Shown here: piece after piece, positions 3-17,685 of the stretch
Layout of the letters: the number at the start of each line of letters is the position of its first letter
Numbering within the stretch: position 1 is the stretch's first letter
Assembly: GCA_963815195.1 (NCBI GenBank)
Contig: CAWFGE010000010.1
Span: 454,857 to 518,856 of the forward strand
DNA length: 64,000 nt
Source: an uncultured Planctomycetaceae bacterium
GTDB lineage: Bacteria; Planctomycetota; Planctomycetia; Planctomycetales; Planctomycetaceae
Reading direction: 5' to 3'
The notes under the pieces: generated by a model
Databases searched by the model: none
The model's input: the letters and a program-made list of their open reading frames with translations, nothing else
Told to the model about the DNA's origin: nothing
Program-made: the position numbers and the translations under genes

Positions 3-1870
3 AACGGGGACCAGGCGGCCGACGCGGTGGCCGAGGTCGATTCTTACGATCTCACCTTCACGTACGATTTTGCCTCCGTTTTGACTTATGGCGATGCCAC
101 GGTTTACCTGCGGGCGGTGGAACTCGATGCCGACGGGCAGGTGGTGACGACGGGCGATTGGCAAGAGTTCCAATTCACGTACGTGGAGCAGGACGACCCG
201 GATCCGACGAATGATGCCGACCCCAATTCCGCCGTATTGACGAGCGTGACCGTGGACCAGGCCACGGCGGATCTGGTCCAACTGTCGGGCACAGTGGACA
301 ACGTCAACGGCGGGACGGCGGCGGCGGTCGAATTCGACGTCGATGGCGACGGCACGCCGGACGCCGAAGCGGCCACGACAAACGACGCCTTCACGCAGCA
401 GTTCACCACCGAGGTCGGCTACGGGGACGAGGTCGTGGTGAGGGTCCGCACGCGGGACGTGGATGACGGCACCGGCGATATGCTCTATGGAGCCTGGCAA
501 CCCGTCGGCTTCAGCCGGGACTATCCGGTCAATGATCCGCCGCTCATCACGCAGCTCGGATTGGCGAACGACACGGACACGCCGGACGACAACATCACCA
601 GCGATGCCACGGTGATCGGCACGATTTCGCACGCCGACGGTTCGCTGGAGGGGAACACCATCGAATACGACCTCAACGGAGATGACATTTACGACGGCAC
701 GGTCATCACCGATGCGTCCGGGCAATTCACGATCGACTTGAATTCCGCCGGCCTCGACGACGGGGCGGTGTCGTTGCGGGTCCGCTCGCGGGAATGGGAC
801 TCCGCCCGGAAAGAGCAACTCCACAGCGACTGGTCCACGTTGGATTTTCAGTACACCGGAGCGGCCGCCCGTTTGCCCAGCCTCAGCGGTCTCGCCTTGG
901 CGAATGACACCGGCACCGCGGGGGATGGGGTCACGTCGGATCCGACGATCGCCGGCACCTTCGTCAGCGGGACGGCGGCGTTGAGCCAAACCGGCGTGGA
1001 AATCGATTTGAACGGAGACGGCGTTCCCGACGACCGCTTCCTCACCGTCGATCCGGGGACCGGCAGTTTCACGGTCGACCTCTCCGATTATCTTAGCACC
1101 TCAGGCCCCGTGACCGTCGATTTGCGGGCCTCGGGCTGGGATGACGCCGCCCAAGAAGCCCTCCAGGGAGATTGGGTGGAATTCACATTTACCTACGAGG
1201 CCCCGCCACCCGCCACCGCCCAGGTGACGGATCTCGCCTTGGTCAATGACACGGGGACGGTGGGCGACGGCATCACAAGCGATCCGCGGATCAGCGGGAA
1301 AGTCACGCATCCCAGCGAATCTGTCTCCGGAGCCTCCGTGCAATACGACTTGGATGGAGACGGGGCCTACGACGGCGAGACAACGGCGGACGGCCGCGGG
1401 CGGTTCAGCATCGATCTGACCGATGCGTCGCTTGCACTGGGCAGCGTCACGGTGGCGGTCCGCGCGGGCGTGTGGTCCGCGGCCGAACTGGGTGACGTCT
1501 GGGGCGATTGGGCGTCGTTCACTTTCACGCTGGAAGCCGCCGCCACGCCGACGCGGCCCGAAGTCACGCAGTTGCAGCTTTTGGACGATGACGACGGGGA
1601 CGGAACGGTCAGCCGGGCCACCATTTCCGGCACCGTGACCGACGGCGATTCCGCGGTGCAGTTGCTGCCGGTCGAGTTTGACGTGGACGGCGACGGCACC
1701 GCGGAAGGCCGGATTTACACCGACACGACCGGCTCCGGCAATTTCCTCGTCGATCTGACGCCCTTCCTCCAAGGCGACGGGGCCAGAACGGTCTATTTCC
1801 GCGCGGCGGAATCGGACACGGACGATTCGACCTTCGGCGATTGGGCCTCGTTCAGCTTCACCTTCCAAGC
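3..1870 (+). repeat. About six tandem Ig-like protein repeats with DxDGDG (putative Ca-binding) motifs
   Basis: EFDVDGDGTPDA, EYDLNGDDIYDG, EIDLNGDGVPDD, QYDLDGDGAYDG, EFDVDGDGTAEG; LANDTGTAGDGVTSDPTI-type motifs recur. Confidence 0.8.
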
Positions 1871-4800
1871 CGCGAGTGACACGTCGCAGGACGACCTCGT
1901 CGATGACAATCCGGTTCCCTTCACCAGTACGGACCTCTCGCACGTGCAATATGAGACGGGGGATTTGGGCATCGGCCTTACCGTCGAGAACACCGATTCC
2001 ACGACCGCAGGGACGTTCGCCAGCGGCTATGTCCAAGTGGGAAGCGTCGTGGGCACTTCCGATCTGTTGGCGGCCATCGCCGACGCCGACATTAGTGAAG
2101 ATACCCCAACAAACACCTCGGACTCCACCACCGACGCCAACGGCAACACGACCGACGTGGCGCAAACCGGCACCTGGCAAAGGACCGTGACGACCATCAC
2201 CGACCAGGCGACGGGCGAGTGGTACCGGTACGAAAACGTGGTCCAAACCTATGACACCGTCACGGACTATACCGCCGCGGACGGCTCCGGTTATGACTTT
2301 CATCAGTGGGGGACTTACGGCTACACGCTCACGGCCTATGGCTATAACGGAAACGCCGTCTATACTCTCGTGGAATACCGTACGGACAATTACGAGAATC
2401 AGCAGTGGACGGCAGCTGATCCTAATACCCTATTCGTCATCACCGGCTCGCAGAGCGACGACGTGGAATCCGGCGGCTATGTGAAGGTGAACGACGACGG
2501 TCTGGCGGCGCCGGGCTCCACGACCTCCTGGTCGAGCCAGGTCGATACGGTCGATCCCACGATCGGCACCTATTCCTATGCCGCTTCCGCTTACGGCCGG
2601 CTGGAGTATACCGACTCCACGGGGAGCGGTTCGGTCGATACGAACGGCGAGTATAGCGACAGTTGGAGCCAGACCTATTCTAGCGAGGCCGACACCCCCG
2701 CCGGCAGCGGCACCACGCTCACCGAGGTCTTCAGCTATCATTCGGTGCATGATGATCCCTATGACATCACGAATCAGGTGAATGTCAATGAGACGACAAA
2801 TCTCGGTGGGGTCTCCAGGACGACCGTCATCGACGAGACGACCACCCTCACCGGTGCGAAAACGGACACTTTCGACTCATCGGGAACGCGGACGACCTAT
2901 GCCGACGGCACCTACGAGTCCGCCATCACCCAGACCTCGACACGCGAAATGCACGACACGTACAACTACAACGGGACACGGACCTACACCGTGGCAGACA
3001 ACAGCGATCCGAATGCGACCGTCAACGAGTATTCCAACTCGACCGGCACCGCGACCCGCCAGCGGGACGTCGTGCAGGTTTATGGCGCGACCACGACCCG
3101 GCTCGTCGACGGCACGCAAACTGTCGCGGGGACCGTGGATGGGAACACCTCGTCCAGCTACAGCGAATCCGGCGGCCAAGACCTCAACTCGGACGGAACC
3201 TCCGACGATGGGACCACCGTGATGTCGTTCTCCACAACCGGAACGACGCATACCTCCGCCAATGGAACCTATCTGATGGTCACCACCGGCACGTTCGGCA
3301 CGGCGGGCAAAGATATCACGAACACCTACGACACGACCGAAGCCGGCTCCTCCGATTGGAACTACACCGCTCAGGGCAACCGAGACTCCTCCCAGGACGA
3401 CGGCGCGGGAAATACCAGCCTGTCCGGCGGCACGAGTTCCTCGACAAACGACGGCAATACCAGCTACTCCAACACCATGCACGTCGATGAACACGTCACC
3501 GACGCCGGTGTCACATCCACCGGCACGATGAACCACACCGGCAACGGCAACGGCTCATCCTCCTACGACGACACCGAATACAATACGACCACCACCGCCA
3601 CCGGCACCACCGGAAATTCCAGCAGTTCCTACAACGACAGCTCGAACTACGGCAACGGCAGCGGCACCTGGACGTCCACCTCCACCGGGACCGGCACCAT
3701 CACCAACGGCCAGGCCGATTACACCCAAACCGATACCCGCGACGAGAACGGCTCGTTCGCATCGGGCAATTCCAACACCTTCACCTCTCACTCGGAAAGC
3801 GACGACGGCTACCGCACCGAAACGAACGATTCCTCCGGCGGCAGCAAGTACGACGAGACCGGCACCTATAGCTCCTCCACCACCGACACGACGCACTCCG
3901 CGCCCGCCGGGGACTCGTCGTCCTCGTCCTCCACCTACAGCAAGCAGGCCGACACGACCTGGTCCAGCAACTCGAAAACCTCGAACACCATCCACGAGGA
4001 TTACTCCAGCGAGGACTATCCCGGGTCGGGGACTTACGAATCCTGGCACGATGAATCCCACTCGGGAAGCAGCACGGACAGCGGCTCGGGAAACTACTCA
4101 CTCAGCGAGAGCGCGAACTCCTCCACGGCGGCCGACGGAACCTCGACCTCCTCGACCGATTCCAGCTACAACTCCTCGGGATCCGGCACGACGACCACCA
4201 GCGGCTCGGATACGATCACCGACCACAGCCATTCCGACGACAACAACGGCGTGACCAGCACGTCCGATCGCACCTCGTCCATCACTCGCAGCGGCACGAC
4301 GACCTACCAAAACACAGCCAACGGCACCTCGAATGAAACCGACGGAGCAAGCAGCTCCACGGACTCGACTTCCTCCGTCAGCGACACGACCTCCACCGTC
4401 CACACCCAAAGTGACACCGTGCAGGACAGCGACGACACCAACGCCTCCGACAAGGCCACTTCCGACAGCCATTCCGAATCGCACGCCACCGACGACACGA
4501 CCACGACCTCCCATGAGGAAACGGGTTCCGTGAATCAACAGTTCGCCGACGGCACCAGCGCGTCCCAGACCACGGACTCGGGATCGAGCGATTCGACAGG
4601 CACGTTCACCACGAGCACCAGCGCCGACAGTACGCGGGACGACCTGGGGGTGATGCTCGGCATCACCAGCCATGTCGCCAAGTCCTCGAGTTCCAACAGC
4701 ACCGGCGACTCGACGTCGCATTCCGACTGGGACGACGAGCAGGACACCTATGCCGACGGCACCTGGTCGACCTCTTCGTCTTCGTCCGGCAACTCGACCG

Positions 4801-7800
4801 TCAACACCACCGGCGACTCGTCCGCCACCGATGACGCCAACAGAACCGACGCTTCGACCTCGACGACGAAAACCTCCACCACGCACGCCCACACGGCCAC
4901 CACGAATGCCAAGCGATCGGTCACCTCCAACTGGTCCTCCGACTCGACGAACGGCTCCGCCGGCGGCACGACCGTGAGCTGGAGCACCGAAGACGTGACG
5001 GACAGCGGGGACGTTGAATCGGATTCCAATTCCAAGGTCCGGGCGGAAAAAGACGCCGACAACTTCAGTCAGACCTATAACGAAGAATCGAAAAACGGCT
5101 CCTATAACCTCACGGGCTCCAGCCGCGACGACCGCTTCGCCGACGGCACGACCAGTTCCACCAGCACGCTGACCCGCACGGAAACCGGGACGAGCACGCG
5201 GAAAGAAGAAAACACGGGCAAGAGCAAACAAGTCTCCCATCCCCAGCCCGGGCTGACGCAGACTCTCACTTCCGATCAGGACGACACCTCGAATTGGACT
5301 GACATCACCTACACCGACACCTATTCGCTCAACACGGACGATCCCGTCGATGCCCCTTTGACCTCGACCGAGATCACGAGCCACACCGAATCCGGCAAGC
5401 AGAGTTGGAACTCGACGGACAACGGCGGCAGCAGCCTCACCGGCACGGTGAACAATCCCGACGACCCCGACGATGAGAGCAACGGCACGGTATTCAACTC
5501 CTCCTCATCGTCCACGACCACCGAAGTCGGCAGCGGCGACTACAGCGACTCCGACACCACGACCGTCAAGGTCGACAACGGAGTCGAAACCACCACCGGG
5601 TCCGGTTCCGACAGCCTGGACGGCAACTCGACGCTCACCACCACCGGGAACAGCAGCGGGAGCATCACCCAGAATCGCAAGATCGGCGATACGACTGTCA
5701 ACTTCAACCAGACTTCTTCCAGTAACTCGAAGGGAACGGTCCTCACCAAAATCGACGACTCGTCCTCCTTCGAAACGGACGGGAAGGGCGGTACGAAATC
5801 CACGACGAAAAGCAGCCCCACAACCTCCGGCTTTTCCACGTCCAGCTCCACAAAGACCACGACCGTCACGATGACGAAGAGCGGTTATAACTTTACTAAG
5901 ACGGAACAAGACATCGATAAGTCCACCGGCAGTTTTGACGCCAACCTATCGCATACGATTGATACGGATTTTGACGGGACAACGACACACAGCGGGGGCG
6001 GATCGAGCACAACCAAGAGCTGGTCTCTGTCCAAGAACACCGTTAACAGCACGACCTTCGAAAAGAAGACCGCCCTCTACTCGACCTGGAAGGGCTATTA
6101 CAACCAGGTGGTCACCTACAATCAGTTGGATCAGACCACCACGAAATCCGACGGCAATGCCTCGTTGACCTATCAGACGGACGGCACGGAGACCTGGGGC
6201 GGCACCCAGACCGACCAGAAAGATATTATTCACGACAAGAAGAAAACCACGACCCGAATCGACAACGTTACTCAGGCCAAAACCAATCGCGACTTCGACG
6301 GTTACGAGGAAGATTACAAAAAAACATCGGGAAGCTTCACCGAGGACAAGACCCACGAAGAGAACCACTCGAAGACGAAACATCAAATCCAGTCCGACGG
6401 GAGCCTCGACGCCGGCGAGGACGTGCTCGATCCCGATATAAAAGCCGCGATCATCGAAAAACATGAAAAGGCCGGCTCGTCCGACACCGAGACCTGGGAC
6501 GAAAAGAGCAGCCCCTCGTCCGGCGTGGGTGTGATGGAGAATTGGAAACACGTGCAAAACACGGACGGGACCGACAAAGGTTATATCTATTGGTCCAAAG
6601 GGTCAGGCGATTTCTACCGCGAGTATTATGACAAGACGGGCGTTTCGGAAACGATCGACAACTATAAGTACGAGCGGAAAGTCTTTACCGCGACCGAAAC
6701 TTCCACTGAGACGATCCACGACGATTCGACCAGTTCGTCCGGATCCAGCGAAAGCAAAATCGTCACCCCCACCGGCGATCCGAATTCGCCGATCGACACG
6801 CAAGAGTGGACCAAGACTTTCAACACTCGCGAGGACACCTACCATCACGCCAACAACGGGACCAGGACCAATACCTACCAGGGAGAAATGACCCCCTACG
6901 AGGGAACCATCTCTTATGATGACACTACGAAGTCGGATTGGGACTGGACCTACGACCGGCATGAGAAATACGACGGGTCTGAATCCCAGCAACGTCCCGC
7001 CGGCAGCGACACGGCGACCGCCAAGGTGGATTCGACGTGGGATTTGACGGTCGATTACCACGGAACCTGGGACGACACGGAGAACATCAACTCGACCAGC
7101 GCCACCGACAACTCGACGATGAGCATTACGAACACATCGCATGAGGAGGCCACGATTCATGGCGTGGCCAACGTCACCTACTCCGCCCAATACGACATCT
7201 CCGGCCTCAACGACGATCAGAATCCGCCGGTCGTCACGCCCGTGGGCGATCCCCAGCCCGTCGCCACCTGGTCCTGGGTCGAGGACTGGACCGGCAAGGC
7301 AAATTCCACGGGCAGTGCCACGATCGAACACTACATGCAAGACTACACATGGGACGAAGCGACCCAGACTTACACCACGACCTGGGAATCAAAAGACTTC
7401 GGCGGCTCTTGGAGCGACAACGAGTCTTACCACTTCTCCGCCAGCGATTCCGACCCCAACGGCACGGAGAACTCCCCGCCGGGGACCTATAGCTCCAACA
7501 TGGACAACGCCGACTTCCTCTCAAGCTACATGTATATTTACATGGACCATTTTTATACGCGGTCGCCCGACGTGGGTAATGGTCGCTCGGCCGATTACAC
7601 CGACTTCAAGAGCGATGTGGACATGGCCGCGTATGAGCCGACGATGGACAGCTACTCGTTCACGCTGTTCGCGTCGCTCGATCCGAGTTGGATCGACCAA
7701 CTGGCCATCAGCCTGTACGACGCGTTTCAGGAGAACTTCCCCGAGCTATCCAATCTCATCTCCAGCACCTGGGAATATGCCTCATTCTTCGCCAGCGACC

Positions 7801-9977
7801 TGTTCCGGCAGTTCGACGACGGCACGATGGCCGACCGGGCCTTCGGGCTGATCGATGGCTTCTTGGACGGCATCAATCCCTTCAATCAATGGATCAGCGT
7901 CCCTGACATCGGACCGGTGTTCGGGCACGTCGAGGATTATGCCTTCTCGAAAACCGTGGGCACGTTTGCCGGCGTCGCCACGGGCATCGCCATCTCGATG
8001 ATGGGGCCCGGGCTGGTCTCCTGCGGCACGTTCGCCCACAAGGCGATGGTGGCCTGGGAAGTGGCCGACGCCGTGGGCGGCATCGGCGGAGCCGTCCAAA
8101 ACATCTACAACAACGGCGGCCAGGTCGGCGTCATGGACGCCCTAGCCATCGCGGGCGGCGTTGTCTCCATCGGCGGTCTCAAGGGCCTGATGAATAAGTG
8201 CTTCGTCGGCGACACGGCAGTCGTTTATGACCAAGAGGACATCTTCACGGCTGTCGCGGCGCCCGAGCGCCAGGCCGCCGACGCTCCATGGAACCTGAAC
8301 TCGCTCATCCTTGGCGGCGGTTTACTGATGGGAATGGGGGCCGGTTGGTTCCTCGCGACCCGCAGGCGACTGGCTGCCCACGAGGAACCGCTTCGTCGCA
8401 AGAAAAAGACCGTCTTGGAGTTGTTCGGCGACCCGCAATTCCTCGATCGGCTCTGGCTGCCGCCGGGCGTCAAGCGGCCCTTGCCGGCCTTCGCCTTGCC
8501 CGGCGCTGCGAACTGTCATAGATTGATGGATGATTGGCCTTCACCTGCAATGAACGCAGTCCCGCCACTTCCCAAGGAGCCGCCCGTGCCGGATGTTGCT
8601 GGCCCGAACTCCGATGTTGCTGGCCGGAAAGAACCTGCTCCTCGGAAGGAATCCGTTTTGAGTTCGCGCCGCTTCGGTTGGCTGATGATGCTGATCTGCC
8701 TCTTGGGCAGTGGGCTGTGCTTCTGGCAGGCGTTGCCAGGCGTGTTCTTGTCCGCTTCCCCTGCTGCAGTTCAGGCCGGCCCTCCGCCGGAACGCCAGAC
8801 GAAGCTCTTGACCCGCAAAATCCGCGACATCCGCCCGGGCATGCGCGTCCTGGCCGACAATCCCGAACTCGCCGACGAGGTTGTGGAGCCGCTGGACATC
8901 GATCCCGCCCAATGGCGACTTGTGACGCTGGAGACGGCCAAAGCGGATGGCAATGTTCTCACGGTCGAACTGCTCAGGCCTCATGGGGAATTGCTGCTGG
9001 CGATTGTGGCGGCGGAGCGCTTGGAGGATCGAAAATCGTCACTTCCCGATGTGATCGATTTGGCATGCAGCGTCCGACCGACGATCAAGACGCCGGTGCG
9101 ACTCTGTCAGGGCGCGGCTTTGCTGCCGGCGATTTTCCAAGAGATGGCCGCCGCCAAAGCTCGTTTGGATCGCGGTGAGCCGATTTTCGCCGCCGTTTCC
9201 GAAGATCACAACTTGATCCGCCGAACCTTGCACCTCAACCTGCCGGAAATGGGCGCGGTCGGGCCGGCAAGAATCACCGCAGTGGCTCCCTGCCCGCCGA
9301 TCGAGGAGGGCAAGGGCCGAATCGTTACGGGCCGGTTTATCCATCAGGCCGCAAACGTCATCGACCTCAAAATTAGCGGCCTCGACGATCCCATCGGCAC
9401 GACCGACACACACCCCTTCTGGAGCGAAGACCGCCATGCCTTCGTTCCCGCGGGCGAACTCCGCATTGGCGAAGAGCTCCGCAGCCTCTCCGGCGAGAAA
9501 ACCTACGTCCTCGCCAAAACCCCCCGCGGGCCGCCGGAAGACGTGTTCAACCTCGAAGTGGAAGGCGAGCACGTTTATTACGTCGCAGAGAGTGGAGTTA
9601 TCGTACACAACATGTGTGCGGATAAGGCAGGAAAAGGTGTAAAATCCTGGATCATGCAAGGTGCCGAAAGTGACAAATACTACAACGAATTATCGCGAGC
9701 TGAAAAGTTACTATATATGCGAGGGCAAAAAACATTTAGCGGTGGTTTTTGGAAGAAAAACAAGGACGTATTAGAAGCCTTCACAGCCGGCAAGACTGGT
9801 CGTGAACTTGTCCAGGGAATTGTTGAACGAGGAAAATGGTTGAAAAAATTTCATCCAATTAGAAGTTCCAGTCTAAATATAATTGACTTCTTTCGAGGAA
9901 TCGGAACCACAATTAGTTCAGGCCCCGATCCGGCTAGTCGCAAGATCCTAATGTGGCTATTCCGTATTAAAGAATAG
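3..9977 (+). CDS. Giant secreted polymorphic toxin precursor (5'-partial): Ig-like repeats, Ser/Thr/Asp-rich stalk, pre-toxin Hint domain, C-terminal toxin tip
   Basis: Frame is open from nt 3 (NGDQAADAVAE), so it starts upstream. Repeated ~110-aa units with E(F/Y)DxxGDG and GDW.xFxF; Hint motifs KCFVGDT (Cys 8199), TTDTHPFW, VFNLEVEGEHVYYV, IVHN (ends 9611); AT-richer tip follows. Confidence 0.9.
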   Translation, partial: NGDQAADAVAEVDSYDLTFTYDFASVLTYGDATVYLRAVELDADGQVVTTGDWQEFQFTYVEQDDPDPTNDADPNSAVLTSVTVDQATADLVQLSGTVDNVNGGTAAAVEFDVDGDGTPDAEAATTNDAFTQQFTTEVGYGDEVVVRVRTRDVDDGTGDMLYGAWQPVGFSRDYPVNDPPLITQLGLANDTDTPDDNITSDATVIGTISHADGSLEGNTIEYDLNGDDIYDGTVITDASGQFTIDLNSAGLDDGAVSLRVRSREWDSARKEQLHSDWSTLDFQYTGAAARLPSLSGLALANDTGTAGDGVTSDPTIAGTFVSGTAALSQTGVEIDLNGDGVPDDRFLTVDPGTGSFTVDLSDYLSTSGPVTVDLRASGWDDAAQEALQGDWVEFTFTYEAPPPATAQVTDLALVNDTGTVGDGITSDPRISGKVTHPSESVSGASVQYDLDGDGAYDGETTADGRGRFSIDLTDASLALGSVTVAVRAGVWSAAELGDVWGDWASFTFTLEAAATPTRPEVTQLQLLDDDDGDGTVSRATISGTVTDGDSAVQLLPVEFDVDGDGTAEGRIYTDTTGSGNFLVDLTPFLQGDGARTVYFRAAESDTDDSTFGDWASFSFTFQAASDTSQDDLVDDNPVPFTSTDLSHVQYETGDLGIGLTVENTDSTTAGTFASGYVQVGSVVGTSDLLAAIADADISEDTPTNTSDSTTDANGNTTDVAQTGTWQRTVTTITDQATGEWYRYENVVQTYDTVTDYTAADGSGYDFHQWGTYGYTLTAYGYNGNAVYTLVEYRTDNYENQQWTAADPNTLFVITGSQSDDVESGGYVKVNDDGLAAPGSTTSWSSQVDTVDPTIGTYSYAASAYGRLEYTDSTGSGSVDTNGEYSDSWSQTYSSEADTPAGSGTTLTEVFSYHSVHDDPYDITNQVNVNETTNLGGVSRTTVIDETTTLTGAKTDTFDSSGTRTTYADGTYESAITQTSTREMHDTYNYNGTRTYTVADNSDPNATVNEYSNSTGTATRQRDVVQVYGATTTRLVDGTQTVAGTVDGNTSSSYSESGGQDLNSDGTSDDGTTVMSFSTTGTTHTSANGTYLMVTTGTFGTAGKDITNTYDTTEAGSSDWNYTAQGNRDSSQDDGAGNTSLSGGTSSSTNDGNTSYSNTMHVDEHVTDAGVTSTGTMNHTGNGNGSSSYDDTEYNTTTTATGTTGNSSSSYNDSSNYGNGSGTWTSTSTGTGTITNGQADYTQTDTRDENGSFASGNSNTFTSHSESDDGYRTETNDSSGGSKYDETGTYSSSTTDTTHSAPAGDSSSSSSTYSKQADTTWSSNSKTSNTIHEDYSSEDYPGSGTYESWHDESHSGSSTDSGSGNYSLSESANSSTAADGTSTSSTDSSYNSSGSGTTTTSGSDTITDHSHSDDNNGVTSTSDRTSSITRSGTTTYQNTANGTSNETDGASSSTDSTSSVSDTTSTVHTQSDTVQDSDDTNASDKATSDSHSESHATDDTTTTSHEETGSVNQQFADGTSASQTTDSGSSDSTGTFTTSTSADSTRDDLGVMLGITSHVAKSSSSNSTGDSTSHSDWDDEQDTYADGTWSTSSSSSGNSTVNTTGDSSATDDANRTDASTSTTKTSTTHAHTATTNAKRSVTSNWSSDSTNGSAGGTTVSWSTEDVTDSGDVESDSNSKVRAEKDADNFSQTYNEESKNGSYNLTGSSRDDRFADGTTSSTSTLTRTETGTSTRKEENTGKSKQVSHPQPGLTQTLTSDQDDTSNWTDITYTDTYSLNTDDPVDAPLTSTEITSHTESGKQSWNSTDNGGSSLTGTVNNPDDPDDESNGTVFNSSSSSTTTEVGSGDYSDSDTTTVKVDNGVETTTGSGSDSLDGNSTLTTTGNSSGSITQNRKIGDTTVNFNQTSSSNSKGTVLTKIDDSSSFETDGKGGTKSTTKSSPTTSGFSTSSSTKTTTVTMTKSGYNFTKTEQDIDKSTGSFDANLSHTIDTDFDGTTTHSGGGSSTTKSWSLSKNTVNSTTFEKKTALYSTWKGYYNQVVTYNQLDQTTTKSDGNASLTYQTDGTETWGGTQTDQKDIIHDKKKTTTRIDNVTQAKTNRDFDGYEEDYKKTSGSFTEDKTHEENHSKTKHQIQSDGSLDAGEDVLDPDIKAAIIEKHEKAGSSDTETWDEKSSPSSGVGVMENWKHVQNTDGTDKGYIYWSKGSGDFYREYYDKTGVSETIDNYKYERKVFTATETSTETIHDDSTSSSGSSESKIVTPTGDPNSPIDTQEWTKTFNTREDTYHHANNGTRTNTYQGEMTPYEGTISYDDTTKSDWDWTYDRHEKYDGSESQQRPAGSDTATAKVDSTWDLTVDYHGTWDDTENINSTSATDNSTMSITNTSHEEATIHGVANVTYSAQYDISGLNDDQNPPVVTPVGDPQPVATWSWVEDWTGKANSTGSATIEHYMQDYTWDEATQTYTTTWESKDFGGSWSDNESYHFSASDSDPNGTENSPPGTYSSNMDNADFLSSYMYIYMDHFYTRSPDVGNGRSADYTDFKSDVDMAAYEPTMDSYSFTLFASLDPSWIDQLAISLYDAFQENFPELSNLISSTWEYASFFASDLFRQFDDGTMADRAFGLIDGFLDGINPFNQWISVPDIGPVFGHVEDYAFSKTVGTFAGVATGIAISMMGPGLVSCGTFAHKAMVAWEVADAVGGIGGAVQNIYNNGGQVGVMDALAIAGGVVSIGGLKGLMNKCFVGDTAVVYDQEDIFTAVAAPERQAADAPWNLNSLILGGGLLMGMGAGWFLATRRRLAAHEEPLRRKKKTVLELFGDPQFLDRLWLPPGVKRPLPAFALPGAANCHRLMDDWPSPAMNAVPPLPKEPPVPDVAGPNSDVAGRKEPAPRKESVLSSRRFGWLMMLICLLGSGLCFWQALPGVFLSASPAAVQAGPPPERQTKLLTRKIRDIRPGMRVLADNPELADEVVEPLDIDPAQWRLVTLETAKADGNVLTVELLRPHGELLLAIVAAERLEDRKSSLPDVIDLACSVRPTIKTPVRLCQGAALLPAIFQEMAAAKARLDRGEPIFAAVSEDHNLIRRTLHLNLPEMGAVGPARITAVAPCPPIEEGKGRIVTGRFIHQAANVIDLKISGLDDPIGTTDTHPFWSEDRHAFVPAGELRIGEELRSLSGEKTYVLAKTPRGPPEDVFNLEVEGEHVYYVAESGVIVHNMCADKAGKGVKSWIMQGAESDKYYNELSRAEKLLYMRGQKTFSGGFWKKNKDVLEAFTAGKTGRELVQGIVERGKWLKKFHPIRSSSLNIIDFFRGIGTTISSGPDPASRKILMWLFRIKE
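8199..9611 (+). other. Pre-toxin Hint (bacterial intein-like) domain with large insertions, including two TM helices
   Basis: Cys1 in CFVGDT, TxxH (TDTH), terminal HN followed by Met-Cys; 471 codons; TM segments at ~8295-8357 and ~8673-8750. Confidence 0.85.
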
Positions 9978-10021
9978 AAAACTGATTATTTTCCCTACTT
10001 GAATAGTAGCAGGCAAATGAG

Positions 10022-10216
10022 ATGACGCTCTTTGAACTGACCGGTGTGATAGGAATCGTGATCGGAGTGATTGCCTGCTTGGTCGTTTCGATCTTTGCGG
10101 GATGGGGAATTCTCTATGGTTTAGCTGCCATCATCGTGGGAGTCATCGGGGGATGGGTTATCGGAGTCGGTGTTGGACATATCGTGTTCTACCTGACTGA
10201 GACTAACGACGATTAA
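10022..10216 (+). CDS. Small two-TM Gly-rich membrane protein, probable immunity protein
   Basis: 64 aa, almost entirely hydrophobic with GxxxG motifs; starts 44 nt after the toxin stop; same AT-richer composition as the tip. Confidence 0.65.
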   Translation: MTLFELTGVIGIVIGVIACLVVSIFAGWGILYGLAAIIVGVIGGWVIGVGVGHIVFYLTETNDD

Positions 10217-10493
10217 TCAAATAGCCGTAAGGTGTTTTGGTTCAGCGGGAAACGGAATTTGGACGGGTTGGTGTTAGTGAATTGAAGATGACCTCCTGTC
10301 GCAGATTTCACGGCATCCTGCCGCGAAGGTTTTGCGCTTTCGGGCCAATCCCGAAGGGGTGACCCAAGGGACGGGATCGAATCCTCGGATTCGATCCCGT
10401 CTTCGGTCTTGGCTCCTGGGACGGCGCTCCGGTTGCTCCTCAGCAGAGCCGTATCCTCCGCCCAGGTTGTCTTCGATTGTGCCAAGCCGCTTC

Positions 10494-10811
10494 TCATCGG
10501 GCAACCTCCTGGCGCTTTGATTGTCGAGCCGCTTGGCGGCGCTGGCGGGCTTCTTCCAATTTGCGGTTACGTTCGGCAAAGATTTCTTTTTCGATCCCGG
10601 CGAGTTTGTCGCTGGGTGTGACATACCCGATGGCCGAGTGCAAGCGGACGTTGTTGTAATGCTCGACGTAATTTTGGATTCGCCTTTGAGCTTCCTCCAA
10701 GCTGGCGGGACAGGTGACCCGAATGCACTCCGACTTGAGGCTGCCGTGCCAGCGTTCGATCTTGCCGTTCGATTGCGGGTAATAAGGACTCGTCCGCACA
10801 TGGGTTGCTCC
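10494..10811 (-). pseudogene. IS3-family transposase C-terminal fragment
   Basis: THVRTSPYYPQSNGKIERWHGSLKSE...YNNVRLHSAIGYVTP, the end of the integrase core. Confidence 0.85.
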
Positions 10812-10895
10812 TGTCGGAGAACCCGAAGGTTTACGCAGTTACGGAACCCGAACTGTTACGCACCGATTTCCCCCAAGCGCGGTGGCTTTGGGGGC

Positions 10896-10927
10896 TTGAA
10901 AATCCCCCGCGCGCGGGGGATTTTCAA
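10896..10927. repeat. Perfect 32-bp palindrome downstream of istB
   Basis: TTGAAAATCCCCCGCG|CGCGGGGGATTTTCAA. Confidence 0.9.
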
Positions 10928-10954
10928 ATTTTCTGACCGGGCCGGGGGCTTCGC

Positions 10955-11872
10955 CTATTCGCCCGGTCTGGATGCTCCCTCGGACCTTGCCGAGTCGGAA
11001 GCGGGCCGAGTCGAGTCCCGAACCGGTTCCTTGGCCGAAGTCAGCGACGTGATCGACCGTTCGCCAAGTTGAGCATCTAACTCTTTCAATCGGTAGCTGC
11101 GGCCTTGGATGTTGAGCACGGTTGCGTTGTGAAGCAAACGATCCAAAATCGCGCCCGCAAGAACCTCATCATCCGCCAGCACGCTGGGCCAACTGGCAAT
11201 CCCTTTGTTCGTCGTGATCGCAATCGAAGAGCCCTTCGCGTAACGATAGTTCACAACGCGGAACAACAGATTCGCACTTTCGCGATCCAATTGCTCATAA
11301 CCAAACTCGTCGAGGACCACCAAGTTGGAGGACATGTACTTGCGGTGCTTCAAACGGGCCGGGCTCAATTCCGCGTCCTTGCGCAGCTGATGAAGCAGTT
11401 CCTCCACGAGATAAAAACTCACCGAGAAACCCGTCTCGATCGCACGGGTCGCCAGCGCGACAACCAGATGCGTTTTTCCCACACCCGGCGGTCCTTGCAG
11501 CAACAATGCCCCGCCATCCCGAATCCACTGGCCGGTCCCCAGCGTTTCGATTTGACTCCGCGAAACCGACGGTTGGAAGGCGAAGTCGAAGTTCGCAATC
11601 GTGGGTCCCGTGGGCAAGTGGGAAATGCGAAGCGCTTGAGTCACGCGTCGCTCTTCTTGACGTTCCAGCTCCAATCGCAACAACGCATCCAGAAACGCGC
11701 CATAACTCTGCTGACTCTTCACAGCCGCCGCGATCAGGTCGGGAATCGCTTCGGCCGCGAAGGTCAATCGCATCGCCTCCAGGCGTTCGCTCAGGGCCTC
11801 CACATCTTCCGTCGGTTTCGGGCAGGGCAAAATCCCCGCCGCATGCAGGCGTCGTGTTTGGGCAATTCTCAT
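10955..11872 (-). CDS. istB: IS21-family helper ATPase IstB
   Basis: FDFAFQPS, Walker A GPPGVGKTHL, Walker B LVVLDEFGY, ITTNK, AILDRLLH, GRSYR. Confidence 0.95.
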   Translation of the reverse strand: MRIAQTRRLHAAGILPCPKPTEDVEALSERLEAMRLTFAAEAIPDLIAAAVKSQQSYGAFLDALLRLELERQEERRVTQALRISHLPTGPTIANFDFAFQPSVSRSQIETLGTGQWIRDGGALLLQGPPGVGKTHLVVALATRAIETGFSVSFYLVEELLHQLRKDAELSPARLKHRKYMSSNLVVLDEFGYEQLDRESANLLFRVVNYRYAKGSSIAITTNKGIASWPSVLADDEVLAGAILDRLLHNATVLNIQGRSYRLKELDAQLGERSITSLTSAKEPVRDSTRPASDSARSEGASRPGE

Positions 11873-12014
11873 TGGGCCACCTCCGCCAGTTGCGCGTAAA
11901 TCTCAATCGAGCGCAGCTGAACCGGCAGCGATGCGATCTCGTTCAACTTGCGGGCCATCTGCCCCAAAGGTCGCGGGGCTACAACGTCATCGGTCTCATC
12001 CCCCTCGTAGCACG
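11869..12014 (-). pseudogene. istA: IS21 transposase IstA C-terminal remnant
   Basis: Reads ...VQLRSIEIYAQLAEVAQ*, with its stop overlapping the istB start. Confidence 0.65.
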
Positions 12015-12455
12015 GTCATCGACTCCCGCAACTCCCAGTGCAGGATCGCCCGACGGCAGCCATCCAAGACGCTGGTCAGGTAATAAAACGTGCCTTCGAT
12101 GTTGATGTAAGACACATCAATGTGCCAGTGTTCGTGGGGTTTTAAAGGCTGCACGAACCCCGTGCCTTTCTTGGAGGGCGAGAACTTGCCCTGGTCCAGA
12201 CGCCGATTCGCTTTGAGTACGCGATAGACCGTGGCCGGGCTACAGGCGGCCACGTCCTCATCGAGCATCATGAACGTCAATCGGCGATAACCTTCCAAGG
12301 GATGCAGGTCATGATAGTCCAAAATCGCGGTCTTCTCCCAGTCCTCCAACCAGTGGTCTCTGGGGATCTGGCCATTGTGCTCGTTGGCCTTTCCATAGCG
12401 ATTCTTCCACGAGTGAAACTTGCTCGTTCCCAGTTCCAACCAAGCCAAAAGTTTT
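12014..12455 (-). pseudogene. IS3-family transposase N-terminal/central fragment
   Basis: GYRRLTFMMLD, SPATVYRVLK, HEHWHIDVSY, YLTSVLDG. Confidence 0.85.
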
Positions 12456-12500
12456 GCCTCCTCACCAGAATCTGTGGGTGAACTCTGGTTCGGGGAGCTT

Positions 12501-12664
12501 GGCGAACACGCTGCTGCAAAAGCCAATGACCGCGCCGGTGGGGAAGCTCACGTTGATGCCGAGCTTGCTGTAATCGCCCACGAGCATACCCACGAACATT
12601 TCGCCGGTTTCGACGGGTTGGCCGTTGATGGGCACGCGCACGGTGCCGTAGGTGTTTTTGAGAT
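12501..12664. repeat. 164-bp direct repeat, copy 1 (fragment of the nucleotidyltransferase gene; att-like)
   Basis: Matches 28211-28374 with 6 mismatches, all synonymous in the minus-strand reading frame. Confidence 0.95.
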
Positions 12665-12675
12665 GACTCGTCCAG

Positions 12676-14199
12676 CTAACCGCCATATTGCTGGTCGGCA
12701 TAGAACGCTTTCACGGCCACGAGCAGCGCGTAGTTGGTGGCGTGCAGGGCATCGTCGGGCTGAGTTTCGGGATGGCTGTAGCGGATGGTGCGGTTCTCGT
12801 CGTCATATTCGGCAACTTCTGCAGCGAACTCATCCAGGTAACTGCCCGAGTCCTCCCAGCGGGGAAAAAGGATCTGTTGCTTTTTGACCCGCGAGAGCAC
12901 GACGCCGAGGCTCGCAGAGCGGTTGACGGTCCATTTGGTTAAGATCCCGTCGGCGCGGGGCGGATGATCGGCTGCGGAATACAAGATCGCATAAAGCCCA
13001 CCGGGACTCGTGAGCCGGTCCAGCAGCAAACGGTTATAGACATGGCCATTCCCGCCGCCGTCAGCGGCAATCAGGGGGACGCGGAATTGGGCACACCGCT
13101 GGGCGACAGCGCTTAAGATGTGGTTGGGATCTTCCGTTGCGGCAAATCGCTCGAAACGGCAGATTTGGAAGTGAAAGTCCGAACGCATGTAGCCGAGAAC
13201 GAGGACCGTCCGCGACGTGCCACCGCCGCCCCAATCGATGCCGGCCACGAGATTCCGCCGGCCCAAGTGAGGAATCTCCTCAAGTGACTGAGCCATCGGA
13301 ATCTCGCGGCAGCAAGCCTCGAGTTCCGCGCGGGTAACGACGTGATCGCCGGTGGTTGTGGATAGCCCTAAGACTTCGTTTTTGAACTTCGCGAGATCGT
13401 AACTCCGCTGCCGCTCCAGGATCTCGTCATAGTTGAGCCAAGGCACCATCGGGTGGCAAATCCAGTAGCCGTCCCCCCAACTCGCCTGGGGATTACGGGA
13501 AACCCAGCGGCCGGATGAGGGGTCGAGCGGCGCGGCGCAGTCGGGGCAGCGAAGGCCGTCGGGTCCCAGGCTGTGTTCATCGAGTATGACGCCCCTTTGG
13601 CAGACGGGGCAATCCAGCGTCCACTCGTGGGCCATCGACTGGCGAAACATCGATTCTAAGTGGTTGTCGACGGACTTGGGCGTGCCCGTCAGGATCGTTC
13701 GGCCGTTTTCGGCGTGGCTCAAGGTCTCCTGCAGAACGGGCAAATCGCCCTCCGCCACGTCTTGGAACTCGTCCACCAGCAGCAAATGGGCGCTGAGTCC
13801 CCGGCAGGAATCGCCCGAGTGGTAGGCGGTGCGCAGGTGGACCGCGGAGCCGTTGGCAAACTGCATATTCATAACCTGCGGCTGCCGGCCTCGGCGACCC
13901 AGAAGCTGGCGGCGGATCAGGGGACTCTGATTCAAGGACGGCAACAAGCGGATTTTACTGAAGACATGGGCCTGTTCGATCCGCGGGCACACAAACAGAA
14001 TCTGCACGCCGGGATTTGTGCAGGCTTCGTAGAGGATCGTGTTCACGAGAAAGGTGCTTTTTTCCGTCTGGCGGCTGCACCTGAGAACGAGGTTCCGCCC
14101 CGCCCTGGCATAGATGGCGGGCAAATACGGCCGGCCCTCAAAGGAAATCAGCGAGCGGTTCAAAAACACGAACCGCTCGCAAAACGTAAGCTTACTCAT
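12676..14199 (-). CDS. Phage terminase large subunit-like ATPase-nuclease (GpA-like)
   Basis: Walker A-like SRQTEKST, Walker B LLLVDEFQD, GTPK, CPVC/CPDC Zn site, FKNEVLG, RNase H-like acidic motifs AGIDWG, AADGGG, DDALHA. Confidence 0.85.
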   Translation of the reverse strand: MSKLTFCERFVFLNRSLISFEGRPYLPAIYARAGRNLVLRCSRQTEKSTFLVNTILYEACTNPGVQILFVCPRIEQAHVFSKIRLLPSLNQSPLIRRQLLGRRGRQPQVMNMQFANGSAVHLRTAYHSGDSCRGLSAHLLLVDEFQDVAEGDLPVLQETLSHAENGRTILTGTPKSVDNHLESMFRQSMAHEWTLDCPVCQRGVILDEHSLGPDGLRCPDCAAPLDPSSGRWVSRNPQASWGDGYWICHPMVPWLNYDEILERQRSYDLAKFKNEVLGLSTTTGDHVVTRAELEACCREIPMAQSLEEIPHLGRRNLVAGIDWGGGGTSRTVLVLGYMRSDFHFQICRFERFAATEDPNHILSAVAQRCAQFRVPLIAADGGGNGHVYNRLLLDRLTSPGGLYAILYSAADHPPRADGILTKWTVNRSASLGVVLSRVKKQQILFPRWEDSGSYLDEFAAEVAEYDDENRTIRYSHPETQPDDALHATNYALLVAVKAFYADQQYGG

Positions 14200-17130: not shown

Positions 17131-17685
17131 ATGAAAAGAGGTAACTCGATGACATCCCGAATTTGGAAAGCCAATTTGCAACCGGAAGATCTCACTGCGG
17201 TCATCGATACGCGCGAAAAGAACCCTTTGGAGTTGTCCCCGCTTTGCGTGGAGCGTCGGAGTTTGGTCACCGGCGATTACACCGTAAAAGGACTCGAACA
17301 TCTGGTGGCGATCGAGCGCAAGAGCCTTTCGGATTTGTTAGCGTGCATTGGCCAGCAGCGGGAGCGGTTTGAGCGGGAAGTCCAGCGGCTGTTGGCTTAT
17401 CCGGTGCGGGCCTTGGTTGTGGAAGCGGCCTGGGCCGAATTGGAAGCCGGGAAATGGACGACATCGCAGGTCACGGCTTCTGCTGCGATGGGCAGTTGCC
17501 TGGGCTGGGTCGCGCGGGGCCTGCCGGTGTTATTGGCCACGGATCATGCCGGGGCTGGGCGGTGCGTTTCGCGACTCTTATGGGTGACCGCGCGCCGCCG
17601 TTGGCGGGAGGACCGGGAACTGATCGGCTCGGCTTTGGACCCGCGGCGAACCGGCTTAGCTCGCCCGACGTTGTGCGAATCGTGA
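17131..17685 (+). CDS. ERCC4/XPF-domain nuclease
   Basis: VIDTRE, GDY, IERKSLSDL, RFERE, LVVEA motifs. Confidence 0.9.
   Translation: MKRGNSMTSRIWKANLQPEDLTAVIDTREKNPLELSPLCVERRSLVTGDYTVKGLEHLVAIERKSLSDLLACIGQQRERFEREVQRLLAYPVRALVVEAAWAELEAGKWTTSQVTASAAMGSCLGWVARGLPVLLATDHAGAGRCVSRLLWVTARRRWREDRELIGSALDPRRTGLARPTLCES

Follow-up and report, generated by a model that had tools for sequence, protein, structure and literature searches.

A Hint domain interrupted by two transmembrane segments in a planctomycete toxin carrier, with relatives encoded as two genes

Results

Layout of the carrier gene

The window, meaning the whole stretch of 64,000 nucleotides that was analysed, opens within a large gene for a polymorphic-toxin carrier, the features of which are collected in Table 1. 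The encoded protein has 4226 aa (4261 codons from stop to stop) and starts upstream of the window; this value replaces the size of more than 3300 aa proposed originally.

Table 1. Features of the carrier gene and its downstream neighbour (window positions).
Feature	Position	Strand	Details
Stalk (N-extein) of polymorphic-toxin carrier	3..8198	+	Ig/cadherin-like repeats, then S/T/D-rich region
Pre-Hint segments, Gly/Ala-rich, hydrophobic	7962..8198	+	Hydropathy 1.46 at 7962, 1.81 at 8124
Hint N-half	8199..8249	+	Cys1 strand and extended strand (residues 7-17)
Acidic tether, N-half to TM1	8250..8294	+	Cys1-to-TM1 stretch net negative in 40/40; 34±6 aa in family
TM1	8295..8357	+	Kyte-Doolittle 19-residue mean 1.56; AF2 helix
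Basic tail after TM1, predicted cytoplasmic	8358..8408	+	
Pro-rich loop, disordered, dispensable linker at natural split site	8409..8666	+	
Candidate internal start	8574..8588	+	AAGGAG 8574-8579, 6 nt, in-frame GTG 8586-8588; duplex -7.2 kcal/mol
TM2	8673..8726	+	Kyte-Doolittle 19-residue mean 1.78; AF2 helix
Ala/Pro-rich tether, TM2 to Hint C-half	8727..8789	+	31±8 aa in family
First strands of Hint C-half	8790..8861	+	
Insert 2	8862..9317	+	Conserved beta domain (~75 aa) that not all family members have; the window copy carries an additional helical sub-insert
Remaining Hint C-half	9318..9611	+	TxxH 9402-9413, His-Asn 9606-9611
Toxin tip (C-extein)	9612..9977	+	121 aa; +1 Met, +2 Cys
Hydrophobic ORF, putative immunity protein judged by position only	10022..10216	+	64 aa; no family above cut-off

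The Hint domain runs from Cys1 at 8199 to the terminal His-Asn, a span of 471 aa, compared to 138 aa for a canonical PT-HINT copy elsewhere in the same genome. The PT-HINT profile PF07591 matches it with 46 bits (cut-off 27.7), but only over profile positions 33-136. Cys1, TxxH and HN, followed by Met, were all located as the original prediction had them, and its second insert, put at ~8860-9320, lies at about 8862-9317. Its central claim, a Hint domain broken by a two-TM hairpin after the Cys1 strand, proved real. The gene does not encode a single continuous PT-HINT domain of ~135-140 aa, and in 13 loci among its relatives the same domain is carried by two genes. A survey of homologues found the hairpin retained, with the interrupted layout seen again in 35 distinct fused relatives, a recurrence that places it beyond chance. 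Short-read contigs (run X1) match positions 8123-8511 and other pieces, with 8512-9048 uncovered, and no promoter-like site was seen within 8200-10400.

Predicted fold and assembly

In the AF2 model of the window Hint, the N-terminal strand was confidently placed (pLDDT 97/88, residues 1-20) and TM-like helices were predicted at residues 33-60 and 156-178 counted from Cys1. The nearest structure was CthBIL4 (PDB 2lwy), with residues 1..471 of the model superimposed on its residues 1..135 (Z 16.2, rmsd 2.1, 132 aligned), so that the Cys1 strand packs into the Hint fold as had been proposed. The short-N split inteins VidaL, AceL, NrdJ-1 and gp41-1 were among the fold matches. When a natural pair of separately encoded halves was modelled as a complex, it reached an ipSAE of 0.89 vs. 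0.00 for the best control, a score that may reflect likeness to solved Hint folds; 116 of 157 solved pairs and 2 of 215 mismatched pairs attained the ipSAE mark. The runs agreed in at least 75% of contacts, the partner had a pLDDT of at least 56, and the predicted interface was formed by residues 1-13 of the N-half.

The hairpin coincides with a gene break in relatives

In 13 distinct relatives, a true gene break was found at the position of the loop. The stalk gene ends with the Cys1 strand, TM1, a basic tail and a stop codon 70-124 aa past Cys1, and a second gene begins with an ATG and encodes TM2, the rest of the Hint domain and the toxin. This count was made after dropping L042 (several frameshifts nearby), L108 (no ATG), L180 (identical to L179) and L248, in which a fused stalk with a truncated C-half precedes an intact cassette. 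An ATG lies between the stalk stop and TM2 in 13 of 14 distinct split loci, and an SD sequence of -4 kcal/mol or better was present in 11 of the 14 vs. 68 of 573 internal ATGs. In one complete genome (G402; one contig, 100% complete), the single N-half belongs to an RHS stalk gene closed by a stop codon, the only two PT-HINT matches are both stand-alone C-halves, and there is no fused copy.

The C-half occurs mostly as stand-alone genes with differing tips and their own starts, placed downstream or elsewhere. C-halves without Cys1 numbered 109, or ~105 when L092, L210 and L246 (fused) and L217 (without the TM insert) are taken out. TM2 was kept in them, and TxxH was present in 108 and HN in 109, in a set of loci chosen for intact cores. 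An ATG or an SD-backed start was located within 50 codons of TM2 in 86 of the 109. Cys1 was in turn present in 48 of 48 N-halves found with a pattern blind to this residue. No obvious C-half accompanied 14 of 59 N-halves; seven of these proved to be fused, one split (L191), and six truncated, error-rich or at an edge.

The window gene is a fused form, and its candidate GTG at 8586-8588 lies 29 codons ahead of TM2. An SD-backed start before TM2 was detected in 9 of 25 fused genes vs. 6 of 100 control windows; its absence from the other 16 counts against the explanation that we favour below.

The loop varies between 55 and 222 aa across the family with an unconserved sequence, and in the window it is disordered in the AF2 model (pLDDT under 50). 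Control of cleavage by a cytoplasmic loop, as suggested originally, is therefore not supported, and a regulatory domain is rejected for a region that is unconserved and disordered and that gives way, in 13 loci, to a stop followed by a new start. As judged from these sequences, the TM hairpin marks a natural split site, a point absent from the original prediction, and the two halves appear either as two genes or fused through what looks like a junk loop.

Membrane topology and tethers

Basic runs follow TM1 (8358-8408) and precede TM2 in the window gene. The positive-inside topology assigned to it originally extends to the family, with K/R higher after TM1 in 40 of 40 members and higher before TM2 in 65 of 82. 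TM1 would thus be a stop-transfer anchor of the stalk (N out/C in), and TM2 is probably an uncleaved signal anchor of the C-half (N in/C out). The two tethers have similar lengths (34±6 aa on the N side vs. 31±8 aa on the C side; rho 0.39, n=47), and both are short together in two lineages. Charge complementarity between the two sides was considered and set aside: all 40 of the 40 members are acidic on the N side, but the C side leans only slightly towards basic (positive in 44 and negative in 24 of 82).

Discussion

A split Hint that probably assembles at the membrane surface

The best explanation of these data, and one we hold to be somewhat probable, is that the window gene belongs to a polymorphic-toxin system of planctomycetes whose A-type BIL/PT-HINT is naturally split and tethered to the membrane. 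Its parts differ in strength: a split architecture with assembly in trans is highly likely, whereas for ligation as the useful product the case is evenly balanced. According to the models, strand complementation would bring the halves together in a Hint fold of the normal kind. We propose that the two halves lie next to each other at the outer surface of the inner membrane. There, Cys1 would form a thioester with the stalk, Asn cyclisation would release the amino end of the tip, and the freed amine would attack the thioester by the BIL-A aminolysis route. The product would be a stalk-tip protein released from the membrane, where the Hint and the two anchors would remain, and the segments at 7962..8198 would then adjoin the toxin tip. 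As the stalk would be able to pair with any expressed C-half, tips would be exchangeable at the protein level.

Three further points weigh against this explanation. The relatives compared are kin and thus not independent of one another, so that p-values are overstated. The stalk leader is not a clear Sec signal, with a weak LEPR-XLL match below the cut-off, and uninterrupted PT-HINT stalk genes are present in the same genome as the window gene, which implies that such toxins do not in general need anchors.

Assembly in trans followed by cleavage only is less likely, though it deserves serious weight. Cys1 hydrolysis would free the stalk from TM1 and Asn cyclisation the tip from TM2, with both departing separately or staying non-covalently joined, as in the launcher proposed originally minus the control by the loop. 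It draws on the +1 residue, which among 139 representatives was Cys in none (Ala in 42, Ser in 36, Thr in 27), and double cleavage would likewise need both conserved catalytic ends. It also draws on the literature, in which cleavage products of type A BILs dominate (PMC7664689 and, in the parts available, PMC4031507, where one BIL spliced only after a change at +1), and PMC7765530 states that these domains cannot ligate. However, type A BILs are described in PMC4031507 as able to splice by aminolysis, and ligation without a +1 nucleophile means that cleavage is not the sole outcome, a point that the original prediction missed. Moreover, 63 of the 139 have Ser or Thr as the +1 residue, which is compatible with standard splicing, a free tip of 90-160 aa would have no evident export handle, and no covalent link between stalk and tip would ever arise in split genomes such as G402.

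It is improbable that only the fused gene works, in cis, with stand-alone C-halves as silent recombination cassettes and split genes as decay or assembly errors. Consistent with such a reading, breakage or 5' truncation affects 39 of the 261 Hint ends and part of another 21 among them, a state resembling silent orphan arrays that also counts against the favoured explanation; some cassettes keep long loop remnants, L042 is error-rich and L108 lacks an ATG, and paralogues within the window's genome carry frameshifts. Orphan cassettes without starts are also the norm in CDI (PMC4725963). Against it, a stop, spacer, SD sequence and ATG precede TM2 in 11 of the 14 split loci, the single-contig genome has no fused copy, and the cassettes of L114 and L117 have their own N-terminus and a TM2 unlike that of the main gene. 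The switch between split and fused states was repeated, with nine changes on the tree, of which at least four are forced.

Still slightly less probable is a reading with TM2 as a signal peptide that is cleaved and TM1 as a C-terminal signal of the LPxTG/PEP-CTERM sorting type, cut by a dedicated protease, the soluble halves clipping stalk and tip together for export and cleaving only at the target: N-termini of C-halves do resemble signal peptides and TM1 plus tail gave two weak matches to sorting-signal models (E 0.15-0.16, far below cut-off), but no conserved motif was seen ahead of TM1 in the family, and the lack of an AxA excess after TM2 (34 observed vs. 30.6 expected of 144), lipobox-like sequences in only 9 of 144 and the matched tethers argue that both anchors are retained.

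Relation to known systems

As in split inteins (DnaE and others), two genes are predicted to make one Hint fold in this family, and its N-half is acidic and short. Natural split inteins have an acidic N-part, with a short N-fragment in the VidaL, AceL, NrdJ-1 and gp41-1 types. Known examples come from replication and nucleotide enzymes of the cytoplasm; each restores a single conserved enzyme there, and the +1 residue is Cys, Ser or Thr. In contrast, the window family appears to be extracytoplasmic and membrane-anchored, without a fixed +1 nucleophile and with a polymorphic C-extein, and its Hint is flanked by variable stalks and tips rather than by one conserved host protein.

With PT-HINT/A-type BIL domains (PMC3113570, PMC3482391; CthBIL4) the family shares the fold, Cys1, TxxH, the terminal His-Asn and the lack of Cys at +1, as well as the place between stalk and variable tip, immunity-like genes downstream and nuclease tips. 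Known members are one continuous domain of ~138 aa taken as cis-cleaving, whereas in this family the break falls behind strand 1, each half has a predicted membrane anchor, and the halves are often separate genes. CDI/Rhs orphan toxin-immunity cassettes likewise follow a main gene in arrays that offer alternative tips together with immunity genes, but they have neither start codons nor RBS and come into use through DNA recombination (PMC4725963); most intact cassettes of the window family have a start and a putative signal anchor, as counted above, and broken fragments also occur. Such an arrangement is not described in the literature searched, which consisted of main texts, few of them from subscription papers.

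The class 1 MafB-CT cassettes of Neisseria are an uninterpreted parallel. They have their own start codon and an A-type BIL minus its first 7 residues and lie beside full-length genes with complete BILs; the available parts of PMC4287609 describe no TM anchors or split main gene, its main text does not mention splicing, and the stalk and phylum are different. It is quite possible, if slightly less likely than not, that contact toxins of planctomycetes are diversified by protein trans-splicing, one giant stalk that is parked in the inner membrane and carries just the first Hint strand serving varied anchored cassettes and giving several tips per cell without DNA recombination. MafB-CT cassettes, which begin right behind the same strand, may do likewise without anchors.

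If true, a naturally split, membrane-tethered extracytoplasmic BIL would give a biological job to the ligation chemistry of these domains, so far taken as cis-acting cleavers. It would open a further route, at the level of proteins, to diversity among polymorphic toxins, in which split halves may let one carrier take different toxin tips post-translationally, and would suggest a testable role for orphan cassettes that carry start codons, among them the unexplained cassettes of MafB-CT. Beyond this, the family offers a large supply of short-N split Hints that accept many +1 residues, useful for protein ligation.

Insert 2, toxin tips and neighbouring genes

The long form of insert 2 was present in 127 of 144 relatives; it gave Atlas matches, but no Pfam family and no structural match that reached Z 5. 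The window tip gave no Pfam or NCBIfam family and no fold assignment (best Atlas match 0.76) and was absent from 100 relatives, but shares 63% identity with the C-terminal end of an RHS protein from Sulfidibacter. Thus, the carrier is conserved and its C-terminal tip variable, with the window tip common to an unrelated RHS carrier and the differing tips of relatives including the nucleases AHH, WHH, EndoU and URI2. Nine weak partial loci were found on viral contigs and 51 partial matches on plasmids. Small genes follow the tips in relatives.

Anatomy of the interrupted Hint

The window ORF is the 3' portion of the gene for a 4226-aa protein bearing Ig/cadherin-like repeats. A profile search of its Hint matched PF07591 over the final 98 residues only; an uninterrupted PT-HINT of 138 aa is encoded elsewhere in the genome, in a stalk gene at G000:C9:73169-78232, and more Hints lie on contigs C19, C20 and C23. 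In an AF2 model based on a 96-row alignment, residues 1-20 had pLDDT 97/88, both TM segments were helical and the loop was disordered, and residues 1 to 471 superposed on CthBIL4 residues 1 to 135 (Z 16.2, rmsd 2.1, 132 of 138 residues). The motif positions, both hydrophobic segments, the model and the superposition agree with the original prediction of a TM-interrupted Hint.

Features of the window Hint and its tip
Feature	Position	Remark
Cys1	8199	Hint start
TM1, hydrophobic segment	8295-8357	
TM2, hydrophobic segment	8673-8726	
TxxH	9402	Hint motif
His-Asn	9606-9611	Hint end; next residues Met-Cys
Toxin tip, 121 aa		directly after Hint His-Asn; begins Met-Cys

The conserved core of a second insertion in the C-half (insert 2, window 8862-9317) gave a confident fold (pLDDT 86, model mdec25e88af9e). 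Insert 2 may be a duplicated Hint half-module, because three of the four best structural matches of this core, all four weak (Z 4.3-4.5), were parts of inteins.

Distribution and topology of the family

The family search covered 1.84 billion representatives and gave 856 matches at 1e-30 or better, of which the best 150 were examined. Planctomycete taxa, whose genera we take to belong to that phylum, contributed 74 of the 76 loci from named genomes, which suggests that the window too is planctomycete DNA. With canonical Hints counted in, a match was present in 17 of 41 relatives and, across the phylum, in no fewer than 32 of 401 genomes. The fetched loci yielded 261 distinct Hint C-ends, of which 35 were fused with two TM helices and 109 had TM2 but no Cys1 (4 of them misbinned). 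Of the rest, 11 were canonical, 39 were broken or truncated at the 5' end, 21 had neither Cys1 nor TM2 (a mixed group), 45 lay at an edge and 1 fell into no class. The hairpin proposed for the window gene recurs among its homologues, with or without insert 2 (127 long, 17 short; n = 144) and on both Ig-type and RHS stalks. Lys/Arg residues were enriched after TM1 in 40/40 cases and before TM2 in 65/82, so that the loop would be cytoplasmic and both Hint halves outside, the positive-inside topology originally proposed.

An intermediate form was found in L255:6019-9130 (genome G418) and in family member P0161, consisting of the Cys1 strand, an insert of 40-50 aa without TM helices at the hairpin site, strand 2 (the first C-half strand) and insert 2. 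Another family member, found in a Lachnospiraceae MAG on a contig of 1.6 kb (L121:1-1645), is likely misbinned.

The loop as split site

The loop between TM1 and TM2 was unconserved (55-222 aa) and, judged from sequence, is the site at which the gene is split. Among 59 distinct N-halves, 38 were fused to a C-half, 15 rows (14 distinct loci) were split into two genes and 6 were truncated or unusable. At split loci the stalk gene stopped 70-124 residues past Cys1; an ATG lay between this stop and TM2 in 13 of the 14 distinct loci, and in 11/14 that ATG was backed by an SD at least as strong as -4 kcal/mol, compared to 68/573 internal ATGs. In a tree built from 58 Hint cores over 105 columns, with many forks left open, the split state required 9 changes, at least 4 of them forced by supported branches.

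Genome G402 (one contig, 100% complete) has a single N-half, on a 2129-aa RHS stalk that is closed by a stop codon. Its two PT-HINT matches are each a stand-alone gene equipped with SD, ATG and TM2, and their tips differ. In G335, the stalk that bears the single N-half has a truncated C-half of its own; beside this stalk lies an intact cassette, or stand-alone C-half gene, and another is 2.9 Mb away. Carrier ORFs bearing an N-half reached 13,571 codons (G335:C1 near 5529000) and 10,696 codons (G094:C1 near 3927000).

The 109 C-halves kept TxxH in 108 and His-Asn in 109, and 86 had an ATG or SD-backed start at most 50 codons from TM2. In fused genes, ATG made up 18/500 codons at 11-30 before TM2 vs. 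18/1750 further upstream, and SD-backed starts preceded TM2 in 9/25 vs. 6/100 control windows, kin not being independent in either comparison. In G094, a Met occupies the same place in the fused gene, whose SD is weak, and in two cassettes. The window gene has a candidate internal start, AAGGAG (complementary to the 16S end of its own genome) followed after 6 nt by an in-frame GTG at 8586, and a close relative on a short contig (P0173) encodes the tip of the window gene behind Met-TM2-Hint. The gene comparisons establish, at the level of sequence, that the anatomy is two-part, that the parts have fused and separated repeatedly and that the catalytic ends are conserved.

Two C-half modules of the SD-ATG-TM2 type are present in the window's genome, the first some 2 kb upstream of the window gene and the second on contig C9. 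The former (G000:C10:450085-451855; L001:14086-15856) is a stand-alone Hint C-half with tip, followed by a DUF7674-like ORF, and carries, in the present assembly, a frameshift close to 450550 that reflects either error or decay. The latter locus (C9:47600-58632 and C9:2472-3911) comprises tandem fused copies, a remote stand-alone cassette and several frameshifts.

Tethers, predicted pairing and catalytic residues

The tether from Cys1 to TM1 measured 34 ± 6 aa and that from TM2 to strand 2, 31 ± 8 aa. Their lengths correlated (rho 0.39, n = 47; 0.31 excluding two C9 paralogues), and both were short in the C9 paralogues (19/9 aa) and in locus L212 (18/10). Since the tethers correlate and shorten together, and no AxA excess was found after TM2, both anchors probably stay in one membrane. 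For the split halves of locus L082, binding was predicted through N-half residues 1-13 (score 0.89 vs. 0.00 for the best control), with runs sharing at least 75% of contacts and a partner pLDDT of at least 56; that mark was reached by 116/157 solved and 2/215 mismatched pairs, and known-fold halves can pass it by likeness. The halves are predicted to assemble into one Hint. Position 1 was Cys in 48/48 N-halves found with a Cys-blind pattern; therefore, the stalk-side chemistry is under selection. The +1 residue was Ala, Ser or Thr in 105/139 and Cys in none of the 139, and the +2 residue was Cys or Tyr in 107/139. A Cys1-Cys+2 disulfide acting as a redox brake is speculation.

Proposed mechanism and known systems

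The Hint interrupted by two TM segments is real and conserved. After export, both halves would be retained on the outer side of the inner membrane, where a Cys1 thioester and Asn cyclisation would release stalk and tip from their anchors, and attack of the tip amine on the thioester would join stalk to tip. For type A BILs, an aminolysis-type joining route is given in the part of PMC4031507 available, but cleavage is said to dominate there, as in the corresponding part of PMC7664689, and ligation is denied in that of PMC7765530. These accounts would suit double cleavage with stalk and tip associated non-covalently, which we regard as a strong rival, if the less probable one. Ligation is favoured, at about even chances, because no other route would join tip and stalk in split genomes. 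That trans-splicing swaps toxin tips is a tentative proposal, to which we give somewhat less than even chances; if true, it would be a new mechanism of toxin diversification. The stalk leader gave a LEPR-XLL match below threshold, a motif noted in giant proteins in the accessible part of bioRxiv 10.64898/2026.03.19.712371.

The window-family Hint shares motifs and fold with PT-HINT/BIL-A domains but is not continuous; it would work in the manner of naturally split inteins that have a short N-part, but differs from them at the +1 residue and in its host protein. Toxin Hints are regarded as cis-acting releasing peptidases in the passages available of PMC3482391 and PMC3113570, where the interrupted form is not mentioned. 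The portion seen of PMC4287609 describes MafB-CT cassettes starting at TTG, with a BIL missing its first 7 residues and no splicing proposal, and that of PMC4725963, orphan cassettes without starts. No description of a membrane-anchored split Hint was found in the literature; supplementary files, outside that scope, may bear on it.

Tip and downstream neighbourhood

The tip (window 9612-10216 with the ORF that follows) is basic, partly hydrophobic and common to a Sulfidibacter RHS protein, and is followed by a 64-aa hydrophobic ORF; the two are possibly a membrane-active toxin and its membrane immunity peptide. Directly after the toxin locus lie what we take to be insertion-sequence-like ORFs (window 10274-12526), including a presumed IstB-like ATPase (10955-11872). 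Further on are a 507-aa ORF (12676-14199, minus strand), presumably akin to a phage terminase large subunit, and a 184-aa ORF (17131-17685, plus strand) that we assume to resemble an ERCC4-type nuclease.
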